Of a stretch of 64,000 nt of DNA, positions 16,189 through 56,466 are shown piece by piece. The number at the start of each line of letters is the position of its first letter. The stretch's first letter is position 1. The DNA lies in the NCBI RefSeq assembly GCF_044324875.1, contig NZ_CP172185.1; one strand, written 5' to 3'. This DNA comes from Escherichia coli (GTDB lineage Bacteria; Pseudomonadota; Gammaproteobacteria; Enterobacterales; Enterobacteriaceae). Position numbers and translations under genes: made by a program. The notes under the pieces are model-generated. The model had not been told where the DNA came from. It did no database searches and saw only the letters and a list, made by a program, of their open reading frames with translations.

Positions 16189-16900
16189 GTGCACAGAAAA
16201 CCCCCAGCTAGGCTGGGGGTTCCGGAAAGCTTTCAGCTTTGAGCCAGTTATTAAAACCCCTTTTGATTTGTTAAAACACCTTGCGGTCTGGCAACTGCAA
16301 GTGTCAAACAAGAAATCAAAAGGGGGTCCCAATGGGGAACGAAAAGAGCTTAGCGCACACCCGATGGAACTGTAAATATCACATAGTATTTGCGCCAAAA
16401 TACCGAAGACAGGTGTTCTACAGAGAGAAGCGTAGAGCAATAGGCTGTATTTTGAGAAAGCTGTGTGAGTGGAAAAGTGTACGGATTCTGGAAGCTGAAT
16501 GCTGTGCAGATCATATCCATATGCTTGTGGAGATCCCGCCCAAAATGAGCGTATCAGGCTTTATGGGATATCTGAAAGGGAAAAGCAGTCTGATGCTTTA
16601 CGAGCAGTTTGGTGATTTGAAATTCAAATACAGGAACAGGGAGTTCTGGTGCAGAGGGTATTACGTCGATACGGTGGGTAAGAACACGGCGAAGATACAG
16701 GATTACATAAAGCACCAGCTTGAAGAGGATAAAATGGGAGAGCAGTTATCGATTCCCTATCCGGGCAGCCCGTTTACGGGCCGTAAGTAACGAAGTTGGA
16801 TGCAAATGTCAGATCGTGTGCGCCTGTTAGGGCGCGGCTGGTAAGAGAGCCTTATAGGCGCATTTGAAAAACCTCCGGCTATGCCGGAGGATATTTATTC
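16189..16900 (+). mobile_element. IS200-family insertion sequence, copy 1 (about 712 bp)
   Basis: Identical to the copies at 48635..49346 and 55755..56466; left end GTGCACAGAAAACCCCCAGCTAGGCTGGGGG hairpin, right end CCTCCGGCTATGCCGGAGGATATTTATTC; single tnpA; no target duplication. Confidence 0.9.
16332..16790 (+). CDS. tnpA: IS200 transposase TnpA (Y1 HUH family)
   Basis: 152-aa product MGNEKSLAHTRWNCKYHIVFAPKYRR...HIHMLVEIPP, with the HxH motif and catalytic Tyr region typical of IS200/IS605 TnpA. Confidence 0.92.
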   Translation: MGNEKSLAHTRWNCKYHIVFAPKYRRQVFYREKRRAIGCILRKLCEWKSVRILEAECCADHIHMLVEIPPKMSVSGFMGYLKGKSSLMLYEQFGDLKFKYRNREFWCRGYYVDTVGKNTAKIQDYIKHQLEEDKMGEQLSIPYPGSPFTGRK

Positions 16901-16931
16901 GTCTTTAGAAAATTGAACTGACTTTCGTCAG

Positions 16932-17384
16932 TTATTCCTTACCCAGCAATGCCTGCAGATCCTGCTTCAAAGAAGACATTTTATTCGCGTATTTCTCTTT
17001 GTTTTCCGCATCTTCAATCAGCTGAACAATCGTTTCAGAAAGCGTTTTACCGCGACGCTGCGCAAGACCAGCCAGACGTTGCCAGACAATAAATTCCAGA
17101 TCGATCGATTTTTTGCGCGTATGCTGGTGTTCCGCATTAAAATGGCGCTTCCGTCTGGCCCGAATGGTTTGCTTCATGCGATTGACCAGTTCCGGATTCA
17201 TATGCTTGTCAATCCAGCCATTTACCAGCACGGGTTCATTTTCCAGCGAGAGCAACACATCGACGGCTTCCTGGGCGGCACTGGCTTCTATGTAACGGGT
17301 GATTAACTCCCCTTCGCGATGCTTCTTCACCAGATACTTCCATTTCCAACCGCTTTCAAGATTTTCAAGTTGTTGATATTTCAT
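16932..17384 (-). CDS. matP: Macrodomain Ter protein MatP
   Basis: 150-aa [38 protein letters not shown]. Confidence 0.9.
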
Positions 17385-17569
17385 AGCGATCTCAATGTTA
17401 CCGTGTAACTCTTTACAGAATATCAGCTTTTTAGGCCAGTGAAGAAAAGAATCTCCATCCTGTGAGCTTTAACGCCCATGCCAGGAGTATTGTCGGTGCT
17501 TTCTACGTGTGCTGCAGTGCCGGTTACGGTATAATCGCGGCTTTGACAACAGACTAAAAAACATCAACT

Positions 17570-19330
17570 TTGACCATTACGAAACTTGCATGGCGTGACC
17601 TGGTTCCTGATACCGATAGCTATCAGGAAATATTTGCTCAGCCACATTTGATTGACGAAAACGATCCTTTATTCAGTGATACTCAACCGCGACTACAATT
17701 TGCGCTGGAGCAGTTGCTGCATACGCGAGCATCCTCCTCTTTTATGCTGGCGAAGGCCCCGGAAGAGTCTGAGTATCTGAATCTTATTGCCGATGCCGCG
17801 CGTGCGCTACAAAGCGATGCAGGCCAACTGGTGGGCGGTCACTATGAGGTTTCCGGGCACACCATCCGCTTACGTAACGCAGTGAGTGCAGATGATAATT
17901 TTGCGACTTTAACGCAAGTTGTCGCTGCCGACTGGGTAGAAGCGGAGCAACTCTTTGGCTGCCTGCGCCAGTTTAATGGCGACATTACCCTGCAGCCAGG
18001 TCTGGTGCATCAGGCAAATGGCGGTATTCTCATCATCTCTTTGCGTACACTGCTGGTGCAACCTCTGCTGTGGATGCGGCTGAAAAATATCGTTAACCGC
18101 GGGCGTTTTGACTGGGTTGCGTTTGATGAGTCGCGCCCTCTCCCCGTCTCTGTGCCTTCGATGCCATTGAAGCTGAAAGTCATTCTGGTAGGCGAACGCG
18201 AATCATTGGCTGATTTCCAGGAGATGGAACCAGAGCTTTCAGAGCAGGCTATTTATAGCGAATTTGAAGATACTCTGCAGATTGTCGATACGGAGTCAGT
18301 AAGCCAGTGGTGTCGCTGGGTAACATTGACCGCAAGACATAATCACTTACCTGCACCGGGAGCGGATGCCTGGCCGGTACTTATCCGCGAAGCAGCCCGC
18401 TACACCGGTGAACAAGAAACACTTCCGCTTAGCCCGCAGTGGATCCTCCGCCAGTGTAAAGAGGTCGCCTCCCTGTGCGATGGCGACACCTTCTCCGGCG
18501 AGCAGATAAACTTAATGCTACAGCAGCGTGAATGGCGCGAAGGTTTCCTCGCTGAACGCATGCAGGATGAGATTCTTCAGGAGCAAATCCTGATTGAAAC
18601 CGAAGGCGAACGCATCGGGCAAATTAACGCCCTTTCGGTCATTGAATTTCCGGGTCATCCACGCGCTTTTGGCGAACCTTCTCGCATTAGCTGCGTTGTG
18701 CATATTGGCGATGGTGAATTCACCGACATCGAACGCAAAGCGGAGCTTGGCGGCAATATCCATGCGAAAGGGATGATGATCATGCAGGCGTTCCTGATGT
18801 CGGAACTACAGCTTGAGCAACAGATCCCCTTCTCAGCATCGCTGACATTTGAGCAGTCATACAGTGAAGTGGATGGCGATAGTGCCTCGATGGCTGAACT
18901 CTGCGCCCTGATAAGCGCCCTCGCCGATGTGCCGGTGAATCAGAGTATCGCTATCACAGGTTCAGTCGATCAGTTCGGTCGTGCCCAGCCGGTCGGTGGT
19001 TTAAATGAGAAAATCGAAGGCTTCTTTGCTATTTGCCAGCAACGTGAGTTAACCGGGAAACAAGGTGTCATTATCCCCACTGCTAACGTTCGCCATTTAA
19101 GTCTTCCCAGTGAACTGTTGAAAGCGGTAGAGGAAGGCAAATTCACCATCTGGGCAGTAGACGATGTGACTGACGCACTGCCGTTATTATTAAATCTGGT
19201 GTGGGATGGCGAAGGCCAAACGACGCTGATGCAAACCATCCAGGAACGTATCGCGCAAGCATCGCAACAGGAAGGACGTCACCGTTTTCCATGGCCATTA
19301 CGTTGGCTGAACTGGTTTATTCCGAACTGA
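17570..19330 (+). CDS. ycbZ: Putative Lon-like protease
   Basis: 586-aa ORF with C-terminal Lon protease S16 domain ([14 protein letters not shown]). Confidence 0.88.
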
Positions 19331-19360
19331 TCGGACTTGTTCAGCGTACACGTGTTAGCT
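19325..19360 (+). promoter_or_regulatory. fabA promoter operators: FadR box plus FabR palindrome
   Basis: AACTGATCGGACTTGTT (FadR consensus-like) overlapping the ycbZ stop, followed by AGCGTACACGTGTTAGCT centred on CACGTG. Confidence 0.6.
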
Positions 19361-19398
19361 ATCCTGCGTGCTTCAATAAAATAAGGCTTACAGAGAAC

Positions 19399-19917
19399 AT
19401 GGTAGATAAACGCGAATCCTATACAAAAGAAGACCTTCTTGCCTCTGGTCGCGGTGAACTGTTTGGCGCTAAAGGTCCGCAATTGCCAGCACCGAACATG
19501 CTGATGATGGACCGTGTGGTCAAAATGACCGAAACGGGTGGTAACTTCGACAAAGGGTATGTTGAAGCAGAACTGGATATCAATCCGGATCTGTGGTTCT
19601 TCGGATGCCACTTCATTGGCGATCCGGTTATGCCGGGATGCCTGGGCCTGGACGCAATGTGGCAGCTGGTAGGGTTCTACCTCGGCTGGCTGGGCGGCGA
19701 AGGTAAAGGCCGCGCGCTGGGCGTTGGCGAAGTGAAATTCACCGGTCAGGTACTGCCGACAGCGAAAAAAGTGACCTACCGTATTCACTTTAAACGCATT
19801 GTTAACCGTCGTCTGATTATGGGCCTGGCGGATGGCGAAGTGCTGGTTGATGGTCGTTTGATCTATACCGCCAGCGACCTGAAAGTCGGTCTGTTCCAGG
19901 ATACGTCTGCCTTCTGA
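19399..19917 (+). CDS. fabA: 3-hydroxydecanoyl-ACP dehydratase/isomerase
   Basis: 172-aa product [23 protein letters not shown]; ORF 19201..19917 is an upstream extension. Confidence 0.93.
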
Positions 19918-19944
19918 TTATAATCAGACATAGTATCAAAAGGC

Positions 19945-19975
19945 GAAACCTCCGCAATGCGGAGGTTTCTTTTTA
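19945..19975. terminator. Bidirectional terminator between fabA and rmf
   Basis: AAACCTCCGC-aat-GCGGAGGTTT with flanking A/T runs. Confidence 0.7.
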
Positions 19976-19986
19976 AAGAGACAGAA

Positions 19987-20154
19987 TCAGGCCATTACTA
20001 CCCTGTCCGCCATGGCTTCTCGCCAGCCTCCCAGCCATTGTGACCTTTGATTCAGCGTCTGATAGGGACACATTTCTTTTGAGCGTCCGGCGATGCCGGC
20101 CTGATAACCACGTTGATGTGCCCGTTCCAGGCGATCTCGTTTTTGTCTCTTCAT
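19987..20154 (-). CDS. rmf: Ribosome modulation factor
   Basis: 55-aa product MKRQKRDRLERAHQRGYQAGIAGRSKEMCPYQ read from the reverse complement; below the ORF-track length cutoff. Confidence 0.85.
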   Translation of the reverse strand: MKRQKRDRLERAHQRGYQAGIAGRSKEMCPYQTLNQRSQWLGGWREAMADRVVMA

Positions 20155-20409
20155 GCCTCGTTTCCCTCATACTGGTTTCTGGTGGAAAAGAAAACAGTGA
20201 TTACTAAATGTGCAATCACAGTTAAGCAATACCGCGAATCATAACTGCCGTCAATGCGCAAAATTCACGCCACTGTCATATTTGTGAGCTACACGGGCAT
20301 GTCGGTTGTACAAAAAATGTGAAGAGGAACAACTTTTTCCGCAAGTTAGAAACAAAAAAACCGCCTCAGGCAACATACCGGAGACGGTTATATTTACAAA
20401 TCTTTATGA

Positions 20410-20973
20410 TTACGGTAGACGCTTTATCTCTTGCGCAATAGAAGCGGCTTCCTGACTCCAGACACTGGCCAGCACTTTAACCATTTCATCGTAACCATCC
20501 TGAGTTTGCACCCCTTCCAGACGGAACGGACGTTTGATCAGTTGTCCCTGGTGGTTCAACAGCCACTCACCACTGACAATGACCTTGCCATCATATCGCC
20601 CGTTAAACTCCGTTACGGTAACATTGAGCGTATCCTGGGCGCTTCCCAGAGGCTGGGAGGCAACCACCCAGCCGGGCAGTTGCGTGCTCAGGTTGGCAAC
20701 CAGAGTGTTGCGCAACTGTTGATCCAACGGGCTGGCCCACAAGTTGTTGTTGGCAATCACATACTTCACATCACTGGTTTGATAAACCACACCATTCCCC
20801 GCCAGATAGTCAGGAACAGTGACCTGCTCTACCCATAACAGGCGATTACCCTGGCTGGCGGTACTTTGTGTACCGCTCTGCACCACAGGTAACTGGTAAT
20901 AGTTTTTATTAATTTCGCCGGAGCTGCATCCGGCCAGCCACAGTGCTGCAATCGTCACTAGCCACTTTTTCAT
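20410..20973 (-). CDS. pqiC: Paraquat-inducible lipoprotein PqiC
   Basis: 187-aa ORF with lipobox LAGC; overlaps pqiB stop by 4 bp. Confidence 0.88.
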   Translation of the reverse strand: MKKWLVTIAALWLAGCSSGEINKNYYQLPVVQSGTQSTASQGNRLLWVEQVTVPDYLAGNGVVYQTSDVKYVIANNNLWASPLDQQLRNTLVANLSTQLPGWVVASQPLGSAQDTLNVTVTEFNGRYDGKVIVSGEWLLNHQGQLIKRPFRLEGVQTQDGYDEMVKVLASVWSQEAASIAQEIKRLP

Positions 20974-22610
20974 TGTTTCGCCCTCTTCGGCTCTGGATCT
21001 TTTTTGTCCTTCGCTTCAAATACCAGCGCGTTACTCTTCTCATTGAGCGTTTTCAGCACCGGTTGCAGTTCTCGCAACACCTGATCAAGGCGCTGCATAT
21101 CCGCCACCATCTTGTTGTAGGCTGCGGAGCCAGGCTGGAAGCCCTGCATGCTGCGATTCAATTCACGCAACGTTGACTGCATATCCGTCGGCAACTGCTG
21201 CATCGACTGGCTGGCGAGGATCTTGTTCATGCTATCCAGCGTCGTTTGCAGGTTTTTCATTGTGCGCTGACTTTCAGAAAGCGTACTGGTTGCCTGTTCA
21301 ATCATCGGATTCAATGGCAGTTTGTTGATCTTATCCAACGCTTCCATCAGTCGTTGCTGGATTTGCGCCAGACCGCCGCTAACGGTCGGGATAATCTGAT
21401 AGCCATTAAATTCACGAATACCGGTTATTGCAGGCGTATTTGGATAGAAATCGAGATCAACATACAGTGCGCCAGTGACCAGGTTTCCGGTTTTCAGCGA
21501 TCCGCGTAAACCACGTTTCAACAATTCGCCAAGGTGCTCAACAACATCCGCATTTTCGCCAAGCTGCATTTTCAGCCGCTCTGGCTCGATACGAATCAGT
21601 ACCGGAATACGGTAATCATCGTTAAATGTCTGACGCATATTCGGCGCAAAGAATGGCACTTTGCTTACGGTACCCAGGCGAATACCCCGGAATTCTACCG
21701 GAGCTCCCGGTTGCAGACCGCGTACCGAATCTTTAAAGAACATCAGATAATCAATGTGATCGGTGTACAACGAATCCTGAATGCTCTTCTGATCATCATA
21801 CAAAACGAAAGCTGTTTTCGGTGCCACTGGCTGCCCTAAATCCAGACCTTCCGGCACATCAAAGCTGACACCGCCACTAAGCAGCGTTGTCAATGAGCCC
21901 ATCTCCACACGCATCCCCGCTGACGTCAGATCAACCGCAATGCCACTATCTTTCCAGAAGCGAACATTGCTGGTCACCAGTCGGTCATAAGGTGCATTGA
22001 TGAACAGTTGATAGCTGATATTGCGTTTTTGCGTATCGAAGGTGCTGGTTTCAACCGAACCTACCCGATAGCCACGGAACAGCACGGGATCTCCTGGCGA
22101 GAGCTGCCCGGCTTTTTTGCTATCGAGAATCACACGGATACCTTTCGCATCAGGCGGGGCCAACGGTGGCGAGTCCAGCAAATCGTATTTATCCATTTTG
22201 CTGCCTTTCGCGCCTGGCTGCAGTTCGATATAAACCCCAGACAGCAGCGTTCCCAGGCCGCTAATCCCTTCTCGACCAATCTGCGGTTTCACCACCCAAA
22301 AGACGGTATCTTTATGCAGCAATTTTTCCATACCGGAATTCAGCCGCGCTTTGATTTCAACGTGCGTCAAATCATCAGCCAGTGTGGCGCTTTCAACCAC
22401 GCCGACGTCAACGCTACGGCTTTTAATGGTGGTTTTACCACCTTCAATTCCTTCCGCATTCGCGGTGATCAGGGTCACTTCCGGCCCCTGATGGCTGTAA
22501 TGATAAAATAGAACCCAGGCCCCAATGAGCGCCGTGACGATAGGAAATATCCACACGGGAGACCAGTTCTTCACTTTCTGGATTTTGGCTTCCCCATTAT
22601 TAGATTCCAT
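20970..22610 (-). CDS. pqiB: MCE-domain intermembrane transport protein PqiB
   Basis: 546-aa product from MESNNGEAKIQKVKNWSPVWIF; ORF 20970..22670 is an upstream extension. Confidence 0.9.
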   Translation of the reverse strand: MESNNGEAKIQKVKNWSPVWIFPIVTALIGAWVLFYHYSHQGPEVTLITANAEGIEGGKTTIKSRSVDVGVVESATLADDLTHVEIKARLNSGMEKLLHKDTVFWVVKPQIGREGISGLGTLLSGVYIELQPGAKGSKMDKYDLLDSPPLAPPDAKGIRVILDSKKAGQLSPGDPVLFRGYRVGSVETSTFDTQKRNISYQLFINAPYDRLVTSNVRFWKDSGIAVDLTSAGMRVEMGSLTTLLSGGVSFDVPEGLDLGQPVAPKTAFVLYDDQKSIQDSLYTDHIDYLMFFKDSVRGLQPGAPVEFRGIRLGTVSKVPFFAPNMRQTFNDDYRIPVLIRIEPERLKMQLGENADVVEHLGELLKRGLRGSLKTGNLVTGALYVDLDFYPNTPAITGIREFNGYQIIPTVSGGLAQIQQRLMEALDKINKLPLNPMIEQATSTLSESQRTMKNLQTTLDSMNKILASQSMQQLPTDMQSTLRELNRSMQGFQPGSAAYNKMVADMQRLDQVLRELQPVLKTLNEKSNALVFEAKDKKDPEPKRAKQ

Positions 22611-22614
22611 ACTG

Positions 22615-23868
22615 TCAGGACTCCTCATGCTCTGATTCAGGTTGACGATCCCACGACAAACGCGGGTCAAACGTCATAGCAGAAAACATTGTCATTATGA
22701 CGACTAAAGCAAACATTAATGCACCCATTGCCGGATAAATACTCATTAAACCTCCCATACGCACCAGCGCCGAGAGCACCGCGATAACGAAAACGTCAAT
22801 CATCGACCAGCGGCCTACAAACTCAACAACTTCATAAATCAAATGCATTCTTTCACTGTCGCGCTTGCCATGCCCTTTGGCATCCCAACACAACCACGCT
22901 ATGGCGATCATCTTTAACGTTGGCACCATAATACTGGCCAGAAAGATAACCGCAGCGACGGGATAAGATCCTTCGCTCCATAACAGGATGACCCCAGCGA
23001 GAATCGTCGATGGCATCTTCGAGCCTAATAAATCCGTCACCATGATGGGCAAAATATTAGCCGGAAGATACAGCATGATGGACGTAACAAGCAGCGCGAG
23101 TGTCCATTGCAGGCTGTTTCTACGTCGAACGTACCCTTTGGTACTACAACGCGGGCACACGGGTTCGTCAGCAGGAAGGATTGCCGTACAACAGGAGCAC
23201 GAACGCAGCCCCTGACGTATCCCCGTGACGCCAGGTTTTAGCGGCTGGCGCAGTTCTGGCATCGGGGCGATATCGTCCCATAACCAGCGACGATCAACGC
23301 ACTGAAAGGCGCGCAGTTGCAGGACACAAAATAAACACCAGGGGAGAAAGCTGCTGCCGACACCAATGCTGCCGTAGGCCATCAGTTTAACGAAACTGAC
23401 CAGCACACCCGCGAGGAAAATCTCCGCCATTCCCCAGGTTTTGAGTTGAAAAAGCACCCGTGCCAGTTGCTCTTTTAAACGGACCGGTAATTCCGCGCGA
23501 TTCACCAGTAACAGAATGGTTATCAGACAAAACGCGGGAACCAGTTGCACAAACAACAGGAAAAAGGTGCCGAGGCTGGCGTAGTCCTCAGAAAAAAGCA
23601 CGCCGGGAATTTCCAGTAATGTAATTTCACTGGTGACTCCCGCAACGTTCATATTCACAAAAGGAAACAAGTTGGACAGCAACAGCATGAACAGTGCAGC
23701 CAACGCATAGGCGGTGGGACGCTGCCGAGGGGCATCCCACGCCACGGTTAACGTTGTGCCACACCGGGGACATGCCGCTTTCTGACCATGCTCAAGGCGC
23801 GGTAACGCCACCAGCATGTCACACTGCGAGCACAGGATGTGCTTCGCGGCATGATGATGTTCGCACAT
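22615..23868 (-). CDS. pqiA: Paraquat-inducible membrane protein PqiA
   Basis: 417-aa ORF, Cys-rich N-terminus followed by multi-pass membrane segments. Confidence 0.9.
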   Translation of the reverse strand: MCEHHHAAKHILCSQCDMLVALPRLEHGQKAACPRCGTTLTVAWDAPRQRPTAYALAALFMLLLSNLFPFVNMNVAGVTSEITLLEIPGVLFSEDYASLGTFFLLFVQLVPAFCLITILLLVNRAELPVRLKEQLARVLFQLKTWGMAEIFLAGVLVSFVKLMAYGSIGVGSSFLPWCLFCVLQLRAFQCVDRRWLWDDIAPMPELRQPLKPGVTGIRQGLRSCSCCTAILPADEPVCPRCSTKGYVRRRNSLQWTLALLVTSIMLYLPANILPIMVTDLLGSKMPSTILAGVILLWSEGSYPVAAVIFLASIMVPTLKMIAIAWLCWDAKGHGKRDSERMHLIYEVVEFVGRWSMIDVFVIAVLSALVRMGGLMSIYPAMGALMFALVVIMTMFSAMTFDPRLSWDRQPESEHEES

Positions 23869-23997
23869 TGGTACTCCTTAATGATGCGCTATTTTACAGA
23901 TGACTAACAAAGTGTTGGTTTTCATGCCTGATAAACCCAGTTCATCAGGCAATTTTACCGTTGTCAGCCGTCTCTGTTTAAATCGACTATTTTGCGA

Positions 23998-25905
23998 TCA
24001 GCCACCATTTTTTAACGCTTCAAGATACTCCCAGCGTTCAAAGGCTTGCTCCAGCTCCTGCTCTGCAGCAGCCATATCGGCGAGCACTTTTTGCGTCTGC
24101 TCATGGGGCTGAGTGAAGAAGGAAGCATCCGCCACCTGCGTCTGTAGGGCTTCCAGCTTCGCCTCCAGATCTTCGAGCAATTGCGGTAGCTGCTCCAGTT
24201 CGCGCTGCAATTTATAGCTTAGTTTGCTACTGCTGCGTTTTACAGTTTCTGCTTTTGGCGCGGCGGCTTCTTCGATTTTTTTCACCGCAGGCTGTTTGAG
24301 CGCCACATACTGTTCTTGCTGACCACGGGCATCATGATAACCGCCGACATAACGACCAATTTTACCGCCGCCTTCGAAGATCCAGCATTCTGTAACGGTG
24401 TTATCGACAAACTGACGATCGTGGCTCACCAGCAATACCGTGCCCTGGTAGCTGTCGATCAGTTCTTCCAGCAGTTCCAGCGTTTCAACATCAAGATCGT
24501 TGGTCGGTTCGTCAAGAATCAATAAGTTGCTTGGTTTGAGGAACAAACGCGCCAACAACAAGCGGTTACGCTCACCGCCAGAAAGCGCACGTACCGGCGT
24601 CATCGCCCGTTTCGGATGGAACAGGAAGTCCTGCAAATAGCCCAAAACATGGCGTGGCTTGCCGTTAACCATCACCTCTTGCTTACCTTCAGCAAGGTTA
24701 TCCATCACCGTTTTATCGGGATCCAGTTCCGCACGGTGCTGATCGAAATAAGCCACTTCCAGTTTGGTGCCAACGTGAATACGCCCGCTGTCCGCCTGAA
24801 GCTGACCGAGCATCAGTTTCAGCAGCGTGGTTTTGCCGCATCCATTCGGACCAATCAGGGCAATTTTGTCGCCACGTAGAACCTGGGCAGAAAAATCTTT
24901 CACCAGTTGCTTACCGTCGACCTGGTAGCAAACGTCTTCCATTTCGAAAACGATCTTACCGGAGCGGCTGGCCTCTTCCACCTGCATCTTTGCGGTACCC
25001 ATCACTTCGCGACGTTCGCCACGCTCGCGACGCATTGCTTTCAGGGCGCGTACGCGGCCTTCATTACGGGTACGGCGTGCTTTGATCCCCTGGCGGATCC
25101 ACACCTCTTCCTGCGCCAGTTTGCGATCGAACTCGGCATTTTGTAGTTCTTCCACACGCAGAGCTTCTTCTTTTTCCAGCAGGTACTGGTCGTAATTCCC
25201 TGGATAGGTCACAAGTTTGCCGCGATCGAGATCAACAATGCGCGTCGCCATATTGCGGATAAACGAACGGTCGTGGGAGATGAAAATTATCGTCCCATTG
25301 AAGGTTTTGAGAAACCCTTCCAGCCAGTCGATGGTTTCGATATCCAGGTGGTTAGTCGGTTCGTCGAGCAGCAATACGCGCGGATTGCTCACCAGCGCGC
25401 GTCCTAATGCCGCTTTACGCAACCAACCGCCGGAAAGCGACGACAGCGCAACATTAGGATCTAACCCCAGTTGCGCCAGCACTTCGTTGATGCGGTTTTC
25501 CAGCTGCCACAGGTTGTGGTGATCCAGCTGTTCCTGAACCTTCGCCAGTTCGTTGAGATTTTTCTCGCTCGGGTCGTTCATCACCAGGCGCGAAATATCG
25601 TGATAGCGTTTCAGGTATTCCGCTTGTTCTTCAATGCCTTCGGCAACGAAATCATAAACGCTACCCTCAACGTTACGCGGCGGATCCTGTTGCAGACGAG
25701 CGACAATCAAATCTTGCTCGTAAATAATGCGACCGTCATCCAGCCCCTGTTCACGGTTGAGGATTTTCATTAACGTCGATTTGCCTGCGCCGTTGCGGCC
25801 CACCAGACAAACACGTTCGTTATCTTCGATATGCAGTTCTGCGTTATCGAGAAGCGGCGCGTCGCTGAACGACAGCCATGCGCCATGCATACTGATTAAT
25901 GACAT
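23998..25905 (-). CDS. uup: ABC-F family ATPase Uup
   Basis: 635-aa ORF with two ABC cassettes (GRNGAGKST, GPNGCGKTT) and C-terminal coiled-coil domain. Confidence 0.93.
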   Translation of the reverse strand: MSLISMHGAWLSFSDAPLLDNAELHIEDNERVCLVGRNGAGKSTLMKILNREQGLDDGRIIYEQDLIVARLQQDPPRNVEGSVYDFVAEGIEEQAEYLKRYHDISRLVMNDPSEKNLNELAKVQEQLDHHNLWQLENRINEVLAQLGLDPNVALSSLSGGWLRKAALGRALVSNPRVLLLDEPTNHLDIETIDWLEGFLKTFNGTIIFISHDRSFIRNMATRIVDLDRGKLVTYPGNYDQYLLEKEEALRVEELQNAEFDRKLAQEEVWIRQGIKARRTRNEGRVRALKAMRRERGERREVMGTAKMQVEEASRSGKIVFEMEDVCYQVDGKQLVKDFSAQVLRGDKIALIGPNGCGKTTLLKLMLGQLQADSGRIHVGTKLEVAYFDQHRAELDPDKTVMDNLAEGKQEVMVNGKPRHVLGYLQDFLFHPKRAMTPVRALSGGERNRLLLARLFLKPSNLLILDEPTNDLDVETLELLEELIDSYQGTVLLVSHDRQFVDNTVTECWIFEGGGKIGRYVGGYHDARGQQEQYVALKQPAVKKIEEAAAPKAETVKRSSSKLSYKLQRELEQLPQLLEDLEAKLEALQTQVADASFFTQPHEQTQKVLADMAAAEQELEQAFERWEYLEALKNGG

Positions 25906-46882: not shown

Positions 46883-46890
46883 TATCATCA

Positions 46891-48451: not shown

Positions 48452-48465
48452 TTTAGCGTCTTCAA

Positions 48466-48494
48466 GAGCCAGCGCCCGCTGGCTCTTTTTTTAT
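48466..48494 (+). terminator. asnS rho-independent terminator
   Basis: AGAGCCAGC-gccc-GCTGGCTCT followed by TTTTTTT. Confidence 0.8.
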
Positions 48495-48562
48495 CCTTTC
48501 TGTCAAGTTATCTGTTTGTTAAGTCAAGCAATCTATTTGCAACCCCACCATAACGATCATCC

Positions 48563-48593
48563 TGTTACGGAATATTACACTGCAACATTTGCG
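48563..48593 (+). promoter_or_regulatory. Distal OmpR-binding site of ompF (F4-like)
   Basis: TGTTACGGAATATTACACTGCAACATTTGCG; it would sit about -380 to -350 from the predicted ompF start site once the 712-bp IS is subtracted. Confidence 0.55.
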
Positions 48594-48634
48594 CACAAAA
48601 AATAATCCGCATTCTTATTGCGGATTAGTTTTTT

Positions 48635-49346
48635 GTGCACAGAAAACCCCCAGCTAGGCTGGGGGTTCCGGAAAGCTTTCAGCTTTGAGCCAGTTATTAA
48701 AACCCCTTTTGATTTGTTAAAACACCTTGCGGTCTGGCAACTGCAAGTGTCAAACAAGAAATCAAAAGGGGGTCCCAATGGGGAACGAAAAGAGCTTAGC
48801 GCACACCCGATGGAACTGTAAATATCACATAGTATTTGCGCCAAAATACCGAAGACAGGTGTTCTACAGAGAGAAGCGTAGAGCAATAGGCTGTATTTTG
48901 AGAAAGCTGTGTGAGTGGAAAAGTGTACGGATTCTGGAAGCTGAATGCTGTGCAGATCATATCCATATGCTTGTGGAGATCCCGCCCAAAATGAGCGTAT
49001 CAGGCTTTATGGGATATCTGAAAGGGAAAAGCAGTCTGATGCTTTACGAGCAGTTTGGTGATTTGAAATTCAAATACAGGAACAGGGAGTTCTGGTGCAG
49101 AGGGTATTACGTCGATACGGTGGGTAAGAACACGGCGAAGATACAGGATTACATAAAGCACCAGCTTGAAGAGGATAAAATGGGAGAGCAGTTATCGATT
49201 CCCTATCCGGGCAGCCCGTTTACGGGCCGTAAGTAACGAAGTTGGATGCAAATGTCAGATCGTGTGCGCCTGTTAGGGCGCGGCTGGTAAGAGAGCCTTA
49301 TAGGCGCATTTGAAAAACCTCCGGCTATGCCGGAGGATATTTATTC
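48635..49346 (+). mobile_element. IS200-family insertion sequence, copy 2, inside the ompF upstream regulatory region
   Basis: Identical to copy 1; left end abuts AATCCGCA-ttcttatt-GCGGATT hairpin plus T-run. Confidence 0.9.
48778..49236 (+). CDS. tnpA: IS200 transposase TnpA
   Basis: Protein identical to the copy-1 TnpA. Confidence 0.92.
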   Translation: MGNEKSLAHTRWNCKYHIVFAPKYRRQVFYREKRRAIGCILRKLCEWKSVRILEAECCADHIHMLVEIPPKMSVSGFMGYLKGKSSLMLYEQFGDLKFKYRNREFWCRGYYVDTVGKNTAKIQDYIKHQLEEDKMGEQLSIPYPGSPFTGRK

Positions 49347-49552
49347 TTAGCTGATAGCACAATTTTCATACTATTTTTTGGCGTTCTGGATGTCTGAACG
49401 AGGATTTAGTGCCAGGTCGATAAAGTTTCCATCAGAAACAAAATTTCCGTTTAGTTAATTTAAATATAATGAAATCATATAAATAGATAAATATTGCTGT
49501 AAATATCATCACGCTTCTATGGAAATATGACGGTGTTCACAAAGTTCCTTAA

Positions 49553-49660
49553 ATTTTACTTTTGGTTACATATTTTTTCTTTTTGAAACCAAACCTTTAT
49601 CTTTGTAGCACTTTCACGGTAGCGAAACGTTAGTTTGAATGGAAAGATGCCTGCAGACAC
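49553..49660 (+). promoter_or_regulatory. ompF proximal OmpR sites (F1-F3) and core promoter
   Basis: TTTTACTTTTGGTTACATATTTTTTCTTTTTGAAACCAAA direct-repeat OmpR half-sites, about 110 bp of leader before the ATG at 49765. Confidence 0.6.
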
Positions 49661-49764
49661 ATAAAGACACCAAACTCTCATCAATAGTTCCGTAAATTTT
49701 TATTGACAGAACTTATTGACGGCAGTGGCAGGTGTCATAAAAAAAACCATGAGGGTAATAAATA

Positions 49765-50853
49765 ATGATGAAGCGCAATATTCTGGCAGTGATCGTCCCT
49801 GCTCTGTTAGTAGCAGGTACTGCAAACGCTGCAGAAATCTATAACAAAGATGGCAACAAAGTAGATCTGTACGGTAAAGCTGTCGGTCTGCATTATTTCT
49901 CCAAGGGTAACGGTGAAAACAGTTACGGTGGCAATGGTGACATGACCTATGCCCGTCTTGGTTTTAAAGGGGAAACTCAAATCAATTCCGATCTGACCGG
50001 TTATGGTCAGTGGGAATATAACTTCCAGGGTAACAACTCTGAAGGCGCTGACGCTCAAACTGGTAACAAAACGCGTCTGGCATTCGCGGGTCTTAAATAC
50101 GCTGACGTTGGTTCTTTCGATTACGGCCGTAACTACGGTGTGGTTTATGATGCACTGGGTTACACCGATATGCTGCCAGAATTTGGTGGTGATACTGCAT
50201 ACAGCGATGACTTCTTCGTTGGTCGTGTTGGCGGCGTTGCTACCTATCGTAACTCCAACTTCTTTGGTCTGGTTGATGGCCTGAACTTCGCTGTTCAGTA
50301 CCTGGGTAAAAATGAGCGTGACACTGCACGCCGCTCTAACGGCGACGGTGTTGGCGGTTCTATCAGCTACGAATACGAAGGCTTTGGTATCGTTGGTGCT
50401 TATGGCGCCGCTGACCGTACCAACCTGCAAGAAGCTCAACCTCTTGGCAACGGTAAAAAAGCTGAACAGTGGGCTACTGGTCTGAAGTATGACGCGAACA
50501 ACATCTACCTGGCAGCGAACTACGGTGAAACCCGTAACGCTACGCCGATCACTAATAAATTTACAAACATCAGCGGCTTCGCCAACAAAACGCAAGACGT
50601 TCTGTTAGTTGCGCAATACCAGTTCGATTTCGGTCTGCGTCCGTCCATCGCTTACACCAAATCTAAAGCGAAAGACGTAGAAGGTATCGGTGATGTTGAT
50701 CTGGTGAACTACTTTGAAGTGGGAGCAACCTACTACTTCAACAAAAACATGTCCACCTATGTTGACTACATCATCAACCAGATCGATTCTGACAACAAAC
50801 TGGGCGTAGGTTCTGACGACACCGTTGCTGTGGGTATCGTTTACCAGTTCTAA
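49765..50853 (+). CDS. ompF: Outer membrane porin OmpF
   Basis: 362-aa ORF, signal peptide [23 protein letters not shown]-terminal VAVGIVYQF. Confidence 0.95.
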
Positions 50854-50879
50854 TAGCACACCTCTTTGTTAAATGCCGA

Positions 50880-50908
50880 AAAAACAGGACTTTGGTCCTG
50901 TTTTTTTT
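50880..50908 (+). terminator. ompF rho-independent terminator
   Basis: AAAACAGGAC-tttg-GTCCTGTTTTTTTT. Confidence 0.8.
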
Positions 50909-51037
50909 ATGCCTTCCAGAGCAATCTCACGTCTTGCAAAAACAGCCTGCGTTTTCATCAGTAATAGTTGGAATTTTGTAAATCTCCCGTTACCCTGATA
51001 GCGGACTTCCCTTCTGTAACCATAATGGAACCTCGTC

Positions 51038-52228
51038 ATGTTTGAGAACATTACCGCCGCTCCTGCCGACCCGATTCTGGGCCTGGCCGATCTGTTTCGT
51101 GCCGATGAACGTCCCGGCAAAATTAACCTCGGGATTGGTGTCTATAAAGATGAGACGGGCAAAACCCCGGTACTGACCAGTGTGAAAAAGGCTGAACAGT
51201 ATCTGCTCGAAAATGAAACCACCAAAAATTACCTCGGCATTGACGGCATCCCTGAATTTGGTCGCTGCACTCAGGAACTGCTGTTTGGTAAAGGTAGCGC
51301 CCTGATCAATGACAAACGTGCTCGCACGGCACAGACTCCGGGTGGCACTGGCGCACTACGCGTGGCTGCCGATTTCCTGGCAAAAAATACCAGCGTTAAG
51401 CGTGTGTGGGTGAGCAACCCAAGCTGGCCGAACCATAAGAGCGTCTTTAACTCTGCAGGTCTGGAAGTTCGTGAATACGCTTATTATGATGCGGAAAATC
51501 ACACCCTTGACTTCGATGCACTGATTAACAGCCTGAACGAAGCTCAGGCTGGCGACGTAGTGCTGTTCCATGGCTGCTGCCATAACCCAACCGGTATCGA
51601 CCCTACGCTGGAACAATGGCAGACACTGGCACAACTTTCCGTTGAGAAAGGCTGGTTACCGCTGTTTGACTTCGCTTACCAGGGTTTTGCCCGTGGTCTG
51701 GAAGAAGATGCTGAAGGACTGCGCGCTTTCGCGGCTATGCATAAAGAGCTGATTGTTGCCAGTTCCTACTCTAAAAACTTTGGCCTGTACAACGAGCGTG
51801 TTGGCGCTTGTACTCTGGTTGCTGCCGACAGTGAAACCGTTGATCGCGCATTCAGCCAAATGAAAGCGGCGATTCGCGCTAACTACTCTAACCCACCAGC
51901 ACACGGCGCTTCTGTTGTTGCCACCATCCTGAGCAACGATGCATTACGTGCGATTTGGGAACAAGAGCTGACTGATATGCGCCAGCGTATTCAGCGTATG
52001 CGTCAGTTGTTCGTCAATACGCTGCAGGAAAAAGGCGCAAACCGCGACTTCAGCTTTATCATCAAACAGAACGGCATGTTCTCCTTCAGTGGTCTGACAA
52101 AAGAACAAGTGCTGCGTCTGCGCGAAGAGTTTGGCGTGTATGCTGTTGCTTCTGGTCGTGTGAACGTAGCCGGGATGACACCAGATAACATGGCTCCGCT
52201 GTGCGAAGCGATTGTGGCAGTGCTGTAA
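51038..52228 (+). CDS. aspC: Aspartate aminotransferase
   Basis: 396-aa [26 protein letters not shown]; PLP-lysine motif SYSKNFGLY. Confidence 0.95.
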
Positions 52229-52240
52229 GCGTTAAAAACA

Positions 52241-52270
52241 ATGAAGCCCGCTTAAAAAGCGGGCTTTTTT
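52241..52270. terminator. Bidirectional terminator between aspC and gloC
   Basis: AAGCCCGC-ttaaaaa-GCGGGCTT with flanking T-run. Confidence 0.75.
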
Positions 52271-52278
52271 ATGCGCCT

Positions 52279-52926
52279 TTACCAGACGGGCATTTCGTCT
52301 TGCAGGAAGGGATTATGCAGGCGCTCATAACCAAGTGTGGATAATGGTCCGTGACCCGGAATAAATGTCACGTCATCCCCCAGTGGCAGCAATTTATCTT
52401 TGATTGAAGAAATCAGTTGATTATGATCGCCACGCGGGAAGTCACTGCGCCCTACTCCACCTTTGAAAATAACATCGCCAGAAATCAGCAGCTTTGCCCG
52501 ATCATCAAAAAATACGACATGACCCGGCGTATGCCCAGGGCAATGTAACACCTGTAAAGCCACATTCCCTATGCTGATGGTATCGCCTTCGTTCAGCCAA
52601 CGATCTGGCGTCAGCGGCTGGCACTCTTCCAGACCAAACATACGACTTTGCGCAGGCAAGCCTTGCAGCCAGAACTCATCTTCTTTTTCCGGGCCAAAAA
52701 CCGGCACGCCGTAATGTTGCGCCAGTTCCGCCGCTGCGCCAACGTGGTCCAGATGACCATGCGTCAGCAGGATCTGCATCAGTGTCAGGCCGCTGGCATC
52801 AACTTCCTGTTTGATTTTTTCCGCATCGCCGCCAGGATCGACCAGTGCGGCCAGTCGGGTTTGTTCACACCAGATCAATGAACAGTTCTGGGAGAATGCG
52901 GTGACCGGAATAATACGATAGTTCAT
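52279..52926 (-). CDS. gloC: Metallo-beta-lactamase fold hydroxyacylglutathione hydrolase
   Basis: 215-aa ORF with THGHLDH metal-binding motif. Confidence 0.88.
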
Positions 52927-52952
52927 ACTGCCCCTGTTTCGTTAAGCGATTG

Positions 52953-53501
52953 CTACCAGTGCCGTGCTGGCCCGGTATCAATATGCACAAAGTTACTACG
53001 TGGGTAATATCCTACACCACCTGCGCGCATAGATAACGCGGCTTTGCGAATATTGCTTAACGCGATACCTTCAATATGGAAATCCATCGCCTGCCCTTTC
53101 GTGTGATAGCTTTTCTTCGCTACTCCACGGCTGCGGGCGCGTAGTTCATTGTTGGTATCAATGGAACGATAACCGGAAATGAGTTGCACCGGTTTGCGGG
53201 TGCCTAACAACCCTTGCAGGCGATACAACTGGTCGAATAATCCTGGGTCGATGGACTTTATTTTGTTCGCGCGGTAATCGCGGAAAAAATGGTTAAGTTT
53301 TGCCAATTCTTCCTGAATATAGCCTCTGCCATCGAAAAACTCCGCTTTGATTGACTCTCCGGTATGAAGATTATTGAGTGTCAAAATGCGCGGGCGTGGG
53401 GTAGAGAGTGTTGCAAACGCAGGGGTCGGCAGGATGGCGGCACCGAGTGCAACGCCACCAAGCGCCAGCAGTTTGCGGCGATTAGCGTCGAATTTGTCCA
53501 T
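52953..53501 (-). CDS. mepK: Peptidoglycan LD-endopeptidase (peptidase M15 family), Tat signal
   Basis: Start at MDKFDANRRKLLALGGVALGAA; ORF 52953..53510. Confidence 0.85.
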   Translation of the reverse strand: MDKFDANRRKLLALGGVALGAAILPTPAFATLSTPRPRILTLNNLHTGESIKAEFFDGRGYIQEELAKLNHFFRDYRANKIKSIDPGLFDQLYRLQGLLGTRKPVQLISGYRSIDTNNELRARSRGVAKKSYHTKGQAMDFHIEGIALSNIRKAALSMRAGGVGYYPRSNFVHIDTGPARHW

Positions 53502-53681
53502 GATAATCAAGTCTACAGGTCAATGTTATCGTTTATATGCACTTCTGGCGCACAAGAGGCACCTTAACCGTCAGTAAAGCTGACGTCAAGATGACTCAAC
53601 CCCAGCAGTGACGGGGGCTGCAGAGAATCGCCCCCGATCATGCTAATTATTACGACAACTGATTTCCCCGAACTGCTTCAT

Positions 53682-55529
53682 TTACCTGATTAATTGTTCC
53701 GCTTTCGATACGATTTGCGAGCTGGATCGCGCAGGCAGATCATAATTGTAAATATCTGTACGATACTGGGTACGACCATCTGCACCAACAAAGGCAGTCA
53801 GGTAGTAGAGATTCACCGGAATCGACTGCCGAATATTGACGTAACGCGTATCGCCCTGCTTCAGCGCATCAGAAATACGTTTGTCATTCCATCCTGCATC
53901 CTGCAACAGCATATTCGCCAGATCAGAAGCTTTATTCACTCGTACACAGCCTGAGCTCAATGCGCGTGTATCACGCTTGAACAGATTGTGGTTCGGCGTG
54001 TCATGCAAATAAATGGCCTCTGAACTCGGCATATTGAATTTATAGCGCCCCAGCGAGTTCCGTGGGCCTGGAGCCTGCTGGAAGCGAAACGGTAAATTCG
54101 AGGCCGTGATTGTAGACCAGTCAACCTGCCATGGGTCAATCGCTTCTCTGCTGTTCCAGCCGCGCATCACCGTATAGCCATGGCTTTCGAGATATCCCGG
54201 ATCGTTGCGCACTTTCGGCAGAATATCTTTGCGTGCCAGAGTTGGTGGTACGTTCCACGGCGGGTTTACCACTACGTTGTTAAGTGCACTGCTCATCATC
54301 GGCGTTTTGCGATCGGGGCGACCGACAATGACTCGCGAATCCAGCACCTGATTGCCGTTCTGATAGTAGACCAGCGAATAGGCCGGAATGTTAACCATGA
54401 TCCCGGTAGAAAGCTCTGTTGGCAGCAAGCGCAATCGCTGGATGTTGAGTGCCAACACGCCAGCACGCTGGGCGGGCGTTACGTTTAACCAGTCACGCGT
54501 TGCCGGGCCAATAGCGCCATCTGCTCCCAATCCTTGCCATGCCTGAAAACGTTTAACGGCTTCCACCAGTTCATTATCGTAGGCGGCACGAACGGCAGGC
54601 GCAGGTTTACTACGAGACGTCGTTTGCTTGTCCATCGGCTTAGTTTCTGCTGTTTCAACAGTAACAGCGGATGGGCTGACTACCGTGTCAGTTGGCGTGT
54701 CATCGCCAGGTAGAGTAATTTTCGGCCCCCCGTCCAACATGCCTGTGCGTTGCAATATTTCGCGCAACGCCGGTACGTCGTTACTCCACTGCCCTGGGCG
54801 CAACGTTGCTTTACCGGTCAGTTGAGGCCACGGTTTGGTGTCACTGAGTAAGGCCAGTAACGATTCATGCATCGCCGCATATTGCGGATGCTGCGGTGCC
54901 AGTCCTGCAACAAACGTCGGCAATTGACCTTTATCCAGCGCCAGCTGCCATTGGTTAATCACCGAAAGCGGCGGCGTTGCAAGCGCATAAGGTTTACTGC
55001 TATATAGCCAGCGAGTGCCTTTGACCGGAATATTTGCAATGAAATGGAGATAGCCCATCATCGCATCAGAGAGCACGACGTCGCGTGCCATCCCGTTAAC
55101 ACCAGGATCGGTCAGTAACTCTACCCATTTATTAAACTGCGGCTGGAAACCGGCAATCGCCACCTCGGCCAGCTGTTGCTGGAAGGCTTTAACAGCATCA
55201 CGGTTTTCCCACATGGGTTGCATATCGCGTGCGGCATACAACAGTTGAAGCTGGTTAAGATAAACCGGCTTGTAACCTGCGGGTAATTGAGATTCGATTT
55301 GCGTGCGGGCTTTTTCTGCCGCACCTTCAGGCAATGGCTGGATCCCCGCCATTATTGCCGTGGCTTGCGCCTGCGGCAGTGCCTCGCCCTGTTCACTGAC
55401 AGCCACCGGGCTGTCGCCAGGGATTACTTCAGGCTCATCGGCCTGCGCATTGAACAGTGGAGCGAATGTTACGGCCAGGCACAAACTGATTGCCGACAGC
55501 CGACGACCACACATCATATTAAGCAACAT
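53682..55529 (-). CDS. ldtD: L,D-transpeptidase LdtD (YcbB)
   Basis: 615-aa ORF with signal peptide, PG-binding domain and YkuD catalytic domain (HDTPNHNLF...SSGCVRV). Confidence 0.92.
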
Positions 55530-55754
55530 CCCTTGCCCCCTGTTTTTATCATACTCTGAATAGCCAGGCTGTTATTTTACGACTTACCTGTACAACGCCA
55601 ATACTCACGAAAGTATGACGAGCAAGCCTGTTACTCATCAGGCTTATCTTCAGTATATAAACGCCGATACGTTTTTACATAACCTAATGTAAAGAAGTTT
55701 AAAGAAAAGCGCGCCGTAATGTGCCACTTTTTTAGTGCAGAAACGGAGTTTTCG

Positions 55755-56466
55755 GAATAAATATCCTCCGGCATAGCCGGAGGTTTTTCAAATGCGCCTA
55801 TAAGGCTCTCTTACCAGCCGCGCCCTAACAGGCGCACACGATCTGACATTTGCATCCAACTTCGTTACTTACGGCCCGTAAACGGGCTGCCCGGATAGGG
55901 AATCGATAACTGCTCTCCCATTTTATCCTCTTCAAGCTGGTGCTTTATGTAATCCTGTATCTTCGCCGTGTTCTTACCCACCGTATCGACGTAATACCCT
56001 CTGCACCAGAACTCCCTGTTCCTGTATTTGAATTTCAAATCACCAAACTGCTCGTAAAGCATCAGACTGCTTTTCCCTTTCAGATATCCCATAAAGCCTG
56101 ATACGCTCATTTTGGGCGGGATCTCCACAAGCATATGGATATGATCTGCACAGCATTCAGCTTCCAGAATCCGTACACTTTTCCACTCACACAGCTTTCT
56201 CAAAATACAGCCTATTGCTCTACGCTTCTCTCTGTAGAACACCTGTCTTCGGTATTTTGGCGCAAATACTATGTGATATTTACAGTTCCATCGGGTGTGC
56301 GCTAAGCTCTTTTCGTTCCCCATTGGGACCCCCTTTTGATTTCTTGTTTGACACTTGCAGTTGCCAGACCGCAAGGTGTTTTAACAAATCAAAAGGGGTT
56401 TTAATAACTGGCTCAAAGCTGAAAGCTTTCCGGAACCCCCAGCCTAGCTGGGGGTTTTCTGTGCAC
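55755..56466 (-). mobile_element. IS200-family insertion sequence, copy 3 (inverted)
   Basis: Reverse complement identical to copies 1 and 2; left end abuts the mukB terminator T-run. Confidence 0.9.
55865..56323 (-). CDS. tnpA: IS200 transposase TnpA
   Basis: Protein identical to the copy-1 and copy-2 TnpA. Confidence 0.92.
   Translation of the reverse strand: MGNEKSLAHTRWNCKYHIVFAPKYRRQVFYREKRRAIGCILRKLCEWKSVRILEAECCADHIHMLVEIPPKMSVSGFMGYLKGKSSLMLYEQFGDLKFKYRNREFWCRGYYVDTVGKNTAKIQDYIKHQLEEDKMGEQLSIPYPGSPFTGRK

Follow-up and report, generated by a model that had tools for sequence, protein, structure and literature searches.

Whether three identical insertion sequences around ompF turn part of an Escherichia coli chromosome into an invertible segment, or serve as passive homology for occasional rearrangement, is the question raised by a 64,000-bp stretch of contig NZ_CP172185.1, hereafter the window. 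A repeat search, three-way alignment and exact string matching revealed three copies of IS200C, each 711 bp long, 100% identical and bounded by the ends GTGCACAG...TATTTATT; an exact triple of this length cannot have arisen by chance. Copy 1 (16189..16899, + strand) is located between the convergent genes ompA and matP, copy 2 (48635..49345, + strand) in the asnS-ompF intergenic region, and copy 3 (55756..56466, - strand) between mukB and ldtD. The span that a first-pass annotation had marked out for these repeats, beginning at 16189 and ending at 56466, was exact to the base at both limits.

All three copies retain an intact open reading frame for a 152-aa Y1 (HUH) transposase with HIH and YY motifs, identified by Pfam and ORF translation (tnpA at 16332..16790, +; 48778-49236, +; and 55865-56323, -), the product of which matches Pfam PF01797 Y1_Tnp at E=2.3e-37 over profile positions 2-121 of 121. 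Inspection of ORFs in the 711-bp element showed that tnpA is its sole ORF, with no second ORF or tnpB. The STnc490 family (art200 / tnpA 5'UTR region; Rfam RF01405) was matched full-length in 3/3 copies at 16199..16322 (+), 48645-48768 (+) and 56333-56456 (-), with 146.4 bits vs a gathering score of 56. Terminal inverted repeats are absent, as the first 40 nt and the reverse-complemented last 40 nt agree at 11/40 positions, which is chance level, and subterminal hairpins are found at nt 10-33 of the left end and nt 684-702 of the right end. RefSeq labels copies that are 98.6-99% identical to these as 'IS200/IS605-like element IS200C family transposase'. The window copies are intact, ordinary IS200C elements belonging to the IS200 group of the IS200/IS605 family. 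They share with IS200 of Salmonella enterica a length of ~710 bp, one tnpA gene for a Y1 HUH transposase, the STnc490/art200 match, the lack of both terminal inverted repeats and target duplication, and a left-end terminator hairpin (window nt 10-33; Salmonella nt 12-34) followed by a 5'UTR stem (PMC4513863); the length of 711 bp vs the 707 bp quoted for the Salmonella element is a minor difference. IS200 has been described as almost dormant in transposition, and the density of three copies within 40 kb compares with a mean of ~2.9 per E. coli genome (PMC4513863).

Gene content was assigned from collinearity with annotated genomes and from intact ORF lengths. Copies 1 and 2, previously described as direct repeats about 31.7 kb apart, are direct and separated by exactly 31,735 bp (16900..48634), an interval collinear with the annotated E300010 sequence that contains matP, ycbZ, fabA, rmf, pqiABC, uup, rlmKL, ycbX, zapC, pyrD, the elf/ycb fimbrial operon, ssuEADCB, pepN, pncB and asnS. 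Copies 2 and 3, described as inverted about 6.4 kb apart, are inverted and flank exactly 6,410 bp (49346..55755) that carry ompF, aspC, gloC, mepK and ldtD. The first-pass annotation had placed fabA, pyrD and asnS in the former interval and the ompF-aspC-gloC-mepK-ldtD block in the latter, and the collinearity and ORF lengths support both assignments. It had overlooked a second inverted pair that the repeat search revealed, formed by copies 1 and 3 with 38,856 bp between them, as well as the possibility of tandem duplication between copies 1 and 2.

The interval between copies 2 and 3 is in ancestral orientation, being collinear with MEW, E300010 and 16 other places, and the window order as a whole is collinear with both IS-free and IS-bearing E. 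coli. Comparison with 5,426 complete E. coli genomes, the closest of which is 98.8% identical to the window over 24 kb, showed that the ompA-matP site of copy 1 carries an IS in 0/5,426 and that the asnS-ompF intergenic region carries IS200C in two, in both cases after a different hairpin 142 bp upstream. The site and orientation of copy 3 are occupied in 97 of the 5,426 genomes, carriers that are phylogenetically non-independent; the two junctions, mukB|IS and IS|ldtD, and the entire site were each found in 97 genomes, and native flanks were kept in 97/97. E300010 has its own inverted IS200C pair around ompF-ldtD, with the block uninverted. Synthetic queries for the asnS|ldtD junction, diagnostic of inversion between copies 2 and 3, and for the ompA|ldtD junction, diagnostic of inversion between copies 1 and 3, were each found in 0/5,426 genomes, counts that are weakly informative in that one genome carries a comparable pair. 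The exact LdtD and OmpF alleles, which occur in thousands of blocks, showed the native order at all places listed. The ompA-to-mukB segment keeps the ancestral gene order; the comparative evidence on inversion is negative, with rearrangement indicated nowhere in the sequences compared.

What the insertions have in common is the sequence that precedes them. The ompA intrinsic terminator, a hairpin and T8 run (16159..16188, +), abuts the left end of copy 1; RNAfold predicted a stem of -19 kcal/mol followed by the T-run, and the hairpin was missing from the output of a simple terminator scan. A second terminator-like hairpin downstream of asnS, with a T6 run (48603..48634, +; terminator scan and RNAfold), abuts the left end of copy 2, and the mukB intrinsic terminator, consisting of a hairpin and TTTTCTTT (56467..56495, -; terminator scan, RNAfold and empty-site comparison), abuts that of copy 3. 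Comparison of occupied with empty sites (for copy 1, with E300010) revealed no target duplication at 3/3 window copies, and the flanks are contiguous; copy 3 follows a T-run that lacks 2 nt relative to both the empty site and the occupied site of E300010, and may therefore stem from a different insertion event than the one in the 97 genomes. A terminator hairpin and T-run abuts the IS left end at 4 E. coli sites and at no fewer than 22 of 23 loci from 12 genera of other Enterobacterales (L005 is marginal), relative to a base rate of 32/202 for T5+ runs, and the four nucleotides 5' of the left end are TTTT, TATT, TGTT or TCTT in 27/27 sites. At 18/21 external loci, a same-strand ORF ends no farther than 200 nt before the left end. 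In both E. coli and the other Enterobacterales loci, the insertions are mostly co-oriented with the terminated gene.

Each window copy was thus inserted with its left end directly behind an intrinsic-terminator T-run, those of ompA, the second asnS hairpin and mukB, respectively. Because each IS is oriented like the terminated gene, and ompA and asnS are on the + strand while mukB is on the - strand, copies 1 and 2 form a direct pair to which copy 3 is inverted. That the left end adjoins the T-run to the nucleotide suggests target-site choice. It is tentatively proposed, with somewhat less than even confidence, that IS200C targets a hairpin and T-tract on single-stranded DNA and inserts precisely downstream of the T-run, oriented like the terminated gene, such that gene orientation would fix the set of available rearrangements. 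A recent survey found intrinsic-terminator-like sequences to be over-represented directly upstream of IS elements, most of all for IS200/IS605 (bioRxiv 10.1101/2025.07.22.666184). The upstream terminator anatomy of that survey is seen at all three window copies; however, the survey is statistical and reads the pattern as limiting transposase expression, whereas the window data concern precise abutment. In the searchable literature, this family-level statistical association was found but a mechanistic account of IS200 terminator targeting was not. 'Peel-and-paste' single-strand transposition, with a preference for the lagging-strand template, is expected of the IS200 group and was established with IS608 and ISDra2 (PMC5371812, PMC5027513). 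GC skew is monotonic across the window, which suggests that the window lies in a single replichore; as copies 1 and 2 are opposite to copy 3, at least one orientation would break a strict lagging-template rule. A transposase-mediated composite element that would pair the copy 1 left end with the copy 2 right end was considered and found implausible, as it needs a 33-kb single-stranded intermediate.

Direct repeats permit deletion and inverted repeats permit inversion, and the minimal efficient processing segment for homologous recombination is tens of bp. All three pairs in the window offer 711 bp of 100% identity, a long homology for RecA-dependent recombination, for which the copies, as perfect homologies, would be passive substrates. 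Recombination between copies 2 and 3 is predicted to invert 6.4 kb, and that between copies 1 and 3 to invert 38.9 kb. For copies 1 and 2, the predicted product is either a deletion or, via unequal sister exchange, a viable but unstable 32.4-kb tandem duplication; since fabA and asnS are essential in K-12 (Keio collection), the 31.7-kb deletion should be lethal. The repeat-recombination logic of the first-pass annotation was standard and sound, if incomplete, and both the repeat observation and the rearrangement logic are ordinary, being already known as textbook IS-mediated deletion, duplication and inversion. Few polar motifs would be affected: inversion between copies 2 and 3 would flip one Chi site and no KOPS motifs, inversion between copies 1 and 3 would flip seven Chi sites and two KOPS motifs, and a motif count found no matS site in the invertible segments. 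A fitness barrier to inversion arising from polar motifs was considered on these counts, and no strong barrier is evident.

Precedents for such events come from several systems. In S. Typhimurium, as summarized by a later paper, IS200 recombination supports segmental duplications in which direct copies provide the portable homology that RecA-dependent unequal exchange requires (Haack and Roth, 1995, via PMC8496262); those duplications were shown genetically, whereas the one between copies 1 and 2 is predicted only. For the E. coli long-term evolution experiment, 110 large rearrangements are summarized in PMC5009759. In E. coli evolution experiments, inverted IS copies inverted the segment between them, leaving an IS at each end, and direct copies gave deletions; these events were observed and involved IS1, IS5, IS150 and similar elements, while the window products are only predicted. 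[quoted passage not shown] Both the recombination outcomes in the window and their low frequency are predictions. At published rates, an inverted subpopulation would be expected to fall far below ordinary long-read depth, so that the refutation proposed in the first-pass annotation, a lack of reads or PCR products across the inverted junctions at reasonable depth, would be too weak.

Together, these observations are very probably explained by three ordinary IS200C copies, situated 3' of terminators in a segment of ancestral order, that are passive RecA substrates with predicted products. On the simplest reading, copies 1 and 2 would be recent local transpositions, because they are unique to this strain and match copy 3 without a difference. 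The three-copy identity could alternatively reflect gene conversion, in which case ongoing exchange among older insertions would account for it and would itself be evidence that the copies recombine. The filled copy 3 site in 97 other genomes and the notorious inactivity of IS200 (PMC4513863) would fit such a history, as would the fact that the IS copies of MEW and E300010 differ from the window IS at 7-9 of 711 positions, yet the three window copies are identical. However, copies 1 and 2 occupy sites without an IS in other genomes, which fits young insertions that need no homogenization. At copy 3, the divergence of the IS between the window and E300010 (~1%) resembles that of the flanks, which are 99.3% identical over 2,401 bp, such that conversion is uncalled for, and lineage-specific bursts of IS200 are documented (PMC8496262). 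Conversion among older insertions is, on this balance, unlikely, and recent local hopping of copies 1 and 2 is probably the better account.

A further alternative is that the block orientation is an assembly choice, with the 711-bp repeat left unspanned by short reads or the contig scaffolded by reference, so that the true or dominant configuration could differ. Short reads are indeed blind to IS-flanked inversions, as paired-end data carry no signal of them (PMC5009759). However, the window is one contiguous sequence across all three copies, and has the gene order seen in all the other E. coli compared, as would be expected a priori; an assembly artifact is accordingly very improbable.

The remaining alternative concerns ompF itself. 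The motif TTTACTTTTGGTTACATATTT (49555..49575, +), located by string match 209 bp beyond the copy 2 right end, is taken here to be the OmpR-binding site F1 of ompF. A putative distal OmpR site, F4, is represented by GTTACGGAATATTACACTGCAAC (48564..48586, +, its end approximate and its extent in the window an estimate), which precedes the copy 2 left end by 49-71 bp. F4 has been placed 260 bp upstream of F1-F2-F3 (PMC3050692), and by string match the start of the putative motif lies 280 bp upstream of F1 in the sequence with the IS taken out. Copy 2 divides the putative F4 from sites F1-F3, and this splitting of the ompF upstream region is predicted to weaken repression of ompF at high osmolarity. 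The 419 bp that precede the ompF ATG, promoter and F1-F3 included, lie inside the block invertible between copies 2 and 3, and the ompF context would be the same for ~1.1 kb after inversion because ompF would again face an IS200 right end. The earlier claim that inversion would re-orient ompF relative to its upstream region thus holds for the distal F4 and asnS but fails for the promoter, F1-F3 and the adjacent IS; inversion would leave behind only F4 and asnS, and copy 2 has already split F4 off.

Like hin, fim, shufflons and other invertons, the block is bounded by inverted repeats, and flipping could change gene context. In contrast to those systems, which use a dedicated recombinase and short inverted repeats, usually flip a promoter and invert at percent-level frequencies, the repeats here are entire insertion sequences, a dedicated recombinase is not encoded, and the promoter moves with the gene. 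Collinearity with annotated genomes identifies the genes of the 48.6-56.5 kb region and its borders as asnS, tnpA (Y1), ompF, aspC, gloC, mepK, ldtD, tnpA and mukB, with no dedicated invertase among them, and both orientations, as expected of an inverton, were not seen in the 5,426 complete genomes, in which the inverted junction is absent. A selected switch, flipped at appreciable frequency by recombination between copies 2 and 3 and with a standing subpopulation in which F4 is lost from cis, the orientation of ompF relative to replication is reversed and ompF regulation is altered, would draw on the two perfectly identical inverted repeats that flank the block, the position of copy 2 between F4 and F1-F3, the few polar motifs disturbed by flipping, and the independent gain of an inverted IS200C pair around the same block in the E300010 lineage. 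This recurrence, however, is explained by terminator targeting, the asnS-side copy of E300010 being at a different hairpin, and the inverted junction is missing from E300010 as from all other genomes compared. The most improbable of the alternatives is such a switch, as the only recombinase present is a single-strand DNA transposase, short inverted-repeat sites of the inverton type are absent, published rates of recombination between IS copies lie at ~1e-5 per generation or below, and the ompF promoter, F1-F3 and 711 bp of IS are identical both ways, so that little regulatory difference is expected.

For three ordinary IS200C copies acting as passive homologies, the consequences are practical, as three 711-bp repeats are break points for short-read assemblies of this strain, and inversion of 6.4 kb or 38.9 kb, or duplication of 32.4 kb, could occur there unnoticed when it is assembled or engineered. 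A by-product of use is the cross-genus demonstration of IS200C exactly after terminator T-runs, which explains both the orientations and the recurrent sites. If the targeting proposal is true, the rule would lead to the same intergenic regions being hit repeatedly in independent lineages, of which the use of two different hairpins downstream of asnS, and of the mukB terminator in 97 genomes, would be instances, and local gene orientation would decide whether IS200 copies come to be direct or inverted.

Three IS200C elements of 711 bp each, which three-way alignment and exact matching showed to be 100% identical (GTGCACAG...TATTTATT), lie in the window: copy 1 at the ompA-matP site (16189-16899, + strand), copy 2 in the asnS-ompF intergenic region (48635-49345, +) and copy 3 at the ldtD-mukB site (55756-56466, -). 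The repeat search returned one family of direct repeats and two pairs of inverted ones, which alignment and exact matching resolve into three elements. The coordinates in the first-pass annotation were exact, and the spacings it gave were right: copies 1 and 2 are separated by 31,735 bp, copies 2 and 3 by 6,410 bp. The repeat search also revealed a third pair, absent from that annotation, formed by copies 1 and 3 in inverted orientation 38,856 bp apart. The presence of three copies within 40 kb looks like local hopping; the average IS200 content is ~2.9 copies per E. coli genome (PMC4513863).

The element shows all of the IS200-group hallmarks that are testable. Each copy contains a single intact 152-aa ORF, which has HIH and YY motifs and matches the whole of Pfam Y1_Tnp (E=2e-37). 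Each also matches Rfam STnc490 (art200) in full, at 146 bits, and has hairpins at the left end (nt 10-33) and right end (nt 684-702). Copies 1-3 have no terminal inverted repeats, and comparison of occupied sites with the empty sites of other strains revealed no target duplication. The position of the left-end terminator agrees with that of Salmonella IS200 (PMC4513863), and elements of 98.6-99% identity are labeled 'IS200/IS605-like element IS200C family transposase' in RefSeq.

The left ends of all three copies (3/3) adjoin the T-run of an intrinsic-terminator hairpin: copy 1 abuts the ompA terminator (16159-16188, +), which a simple terminator scan did not list, copy 2 the second hairpin after asnS (48603-48634, +), and copy 3 the mukB terminator (56467-56495, -). 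With the site used in the comparison strains MEW and E300010 included, a hairpin and T-run are found at the IS200C left end in 4/4 E. coli sites. When species-representative genomes were scanned for exact matches to the 31-nt left end, 25 loci in 12 genera were found; wherever enough sequence lay upstream (23 external loci), a T-rich tract was present at the IS boundary, and a clear GC-rich stem lay just before this tract in at least 22 of these 23, L005 being the marginal one. Over all of these loci, folding energies lay between -11 and -25 kcal/mol, and the 4 nt preceding the IS were TTTT, TATT, TGTT or TCTT. The base rate in the window is a hairpin at 32 of 202 runs of five or more T residues.

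In 18/21 external loci, an ORF of 90 aa or more on the same strand stops within the 200 nt that precede the left end, so IS200C in most cases has the same orientation as the gene at whose terminator it lies. Thus, copies 1 and 2 are direct because ompA and asnS are both on the + strand, and copy 3 is inverted because mukB is on the - strand. Cumulative GC skew is monotonic, indicating one apparent replichore; a strict lagging-strand-template rule is described for IS608 and ISDra2 (PMC5371812), which the opposite IS200C orientations in the window do not fit. A preprint (10.1101/2025.07.22.666184) describes a statistical association with terminators at the family level, read as limiting transposase expression, while a mechanistic account of terminator targeting for IS200 was not found in the searchable literature.

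All unique segments of this E. coli ompA-to-mukB region align in the same order and orientation in E300010 and MEW, and thousands of genomes match a 24-kb stretch in one uninterrupted alignment. Because of this collinearity with other E. coli, the arrangement is ancestral, and the window shows none of the rearrangements that IS200 could mediate. Top identity over the 24 kb among 5,426 complete E. coli genomes was only 98.8% (soil isolate VCSW5), so none of them is a close relative of the source lineage. The ssu region (38637-42572) shows only 95.8% identity to MEW, with neighboring segments at ~99%; together with the 98.8% best match, this suggests that the lineage is mosaic or has been sampled poorly. 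Annotation of collinear genomes and intact ORFs bore out the gene content proposed earlier and gave the complete lists: matP, ycbZ, fabA, rmf, pqiABC, uup, rlmKL, ycbX, zapC, pyrD, the elf/ycb fimbrial genes, ssuEADCB, pepN, pncB and asnS lie between copies 1 and 2, and ompF, aspC, gloC, mepK and ldtD between copies 2 and 3. Upstream of pyrD, Rfam matches the PyrD leader (31096-31169, -), as expected for E. coli. The ssuB-pepN intergenic region has a match to naRNA4 (CssrE, REP-derived; 42642-42720, -) and is another recurrently used insertion site, carrying an IS3-family element in several other strains; that of E300010 (29669-31017 of locus L002) is annotated as IS1397.

The three sites differ in their occupancy among the 5,426 genomes. 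IS200C occupies the ldtD-mukB site, in the same orientation, in 97, the ompA-matP site in none, and the asnS-ompF intergenic region in two, MEW (L001 9694-10404) and E300010 (L002 36777-37487). In both of these strains it follows a different hairpin, the first after asnS (window 48464-48492), which precedes the window's site by 142 bp; the asnS-ompF region was thus struck at least twice independently, at two hairpins. Because their sites were not found occupied elsewhere, copies 1 and 2 are private to the lineage. The simplest reading of this privacy, and of their identity to copy 3, is recent, local transposition; homogenization of older insertions by gene conversion would explain the identity as well and is the weaker alternative. 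The T-run beside copy 3 (56467-56475) reads CTTT in the window and CTTTTT in both the empty site of MEW and the occupied site of E300010, a 2-nt difference that may reflect slippage or independent insertion 2 nt away.

The first-pass annotation had proposed that recombination between the direct copies would delete essential genes and that copies 2 and 3 could invert the DNA between them. This was a correct but generic and incomplete inference, and there is mild comparative evidence against fixation. Direct repeats are also open to tandem duplication via unequal sister exchange, which had been omitted and is the documented outcome for IS200 direct repeats (Haack and Roth, 1995, as cited in PMC8496262). 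The predicted 32.4-kb duplication of the copy 1-2 unit would leave the cell viable. The deletion would not, since K-12 needs both fabA and asnS to live. Likewise omitted was a predicted 38.9-kb inversion between copies 1 and 3, which would flip copy 2 as well and so alter the set of pairs that stand in direct or in inverted orientation. One Chi site and no KOPS motifs would be reversed by the 2x3 inversion, seven Chi sites and two KOPS motifs by the 1x3 inversion, and no matS site occurs within the window; polar-motif costs of both inversions are small.

Synthetic junctions built for the predicted inversions were searched against the 5,426 complete genomes, a search that registers fixed rearrangements only, and neither the asnS-ldtD junction (2x3) nor the ompA-ldtD junction (1x3) was present in any. 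In a stronger test, the mukB-IS junction, the IS-ldtD junction and the full ldtD-IS-mukB site were each found in exactly 97 genomes, and no fixed flank exchange of the ldtD-mukB copy with another copy occurred among the carriers listed, several of which have 25-32 matching places per genome. E300010 constitutes a natural replicate, with its own inverted IS200C pair around ompF-ldtD, uninverted. For IS homologous recombination in E. coli, the published rate for all IS pairs together is ~4.5e-5 per genome per generation, and IS-flanked inversions give no short-read signal (PMC5009759). For a single 711-bp pair, the inverted share of a culture can be inferred to be roughly 1e-5 to 1e-3, so 'no reads at reasonable depth', the outcome by which a minority inversion was to be judged, cannot discriminate.

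The insertion of copy 2 may itself matter for ompF. The F1-F3 promoter sites for OmpR lie at 49555-49620, and a string match places what we take to be F1 at 209 bp past the right end of copy 2. F4, the distal site for OmpR, lies 260 bp upstream of F1-F2-F3 and acts by looping at high osmolarity (PMC3050692). An F4-like motif (GTTACGGAATATTACA..., 48564-48586) is found 49-71 bp beyond the IS, on the opposite side from F1. Copy 2 separates this putative F4 from the F1-F3 promoter sites, which would set F4 and F1 711 bp further apart, at about 1 kb, and weaker ompF repression at high osmolarity is a reasonable prediction. The MEW and E300010 insertions are upstream of F4 and leave the F4/F1-F3 region unsplit. 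Re-orientation of ompF relative to its upstream region by the 2x3 inversion, as previously suggested, holds for the putative F4 and asnS, which would be left behind, and not for the promoter and F1-F3, which would travel with ompF because F1 lies on the ompF side of copy 2. After this inversion, ompF would again abut an IS200 right end, and the effect is smaller than had been implied.

Thus, these elements are ordinary IS200C copies that provide, at most, passive portable homology, and the capacity of repeated IS copies to serve as recombination substrates is already known biology.
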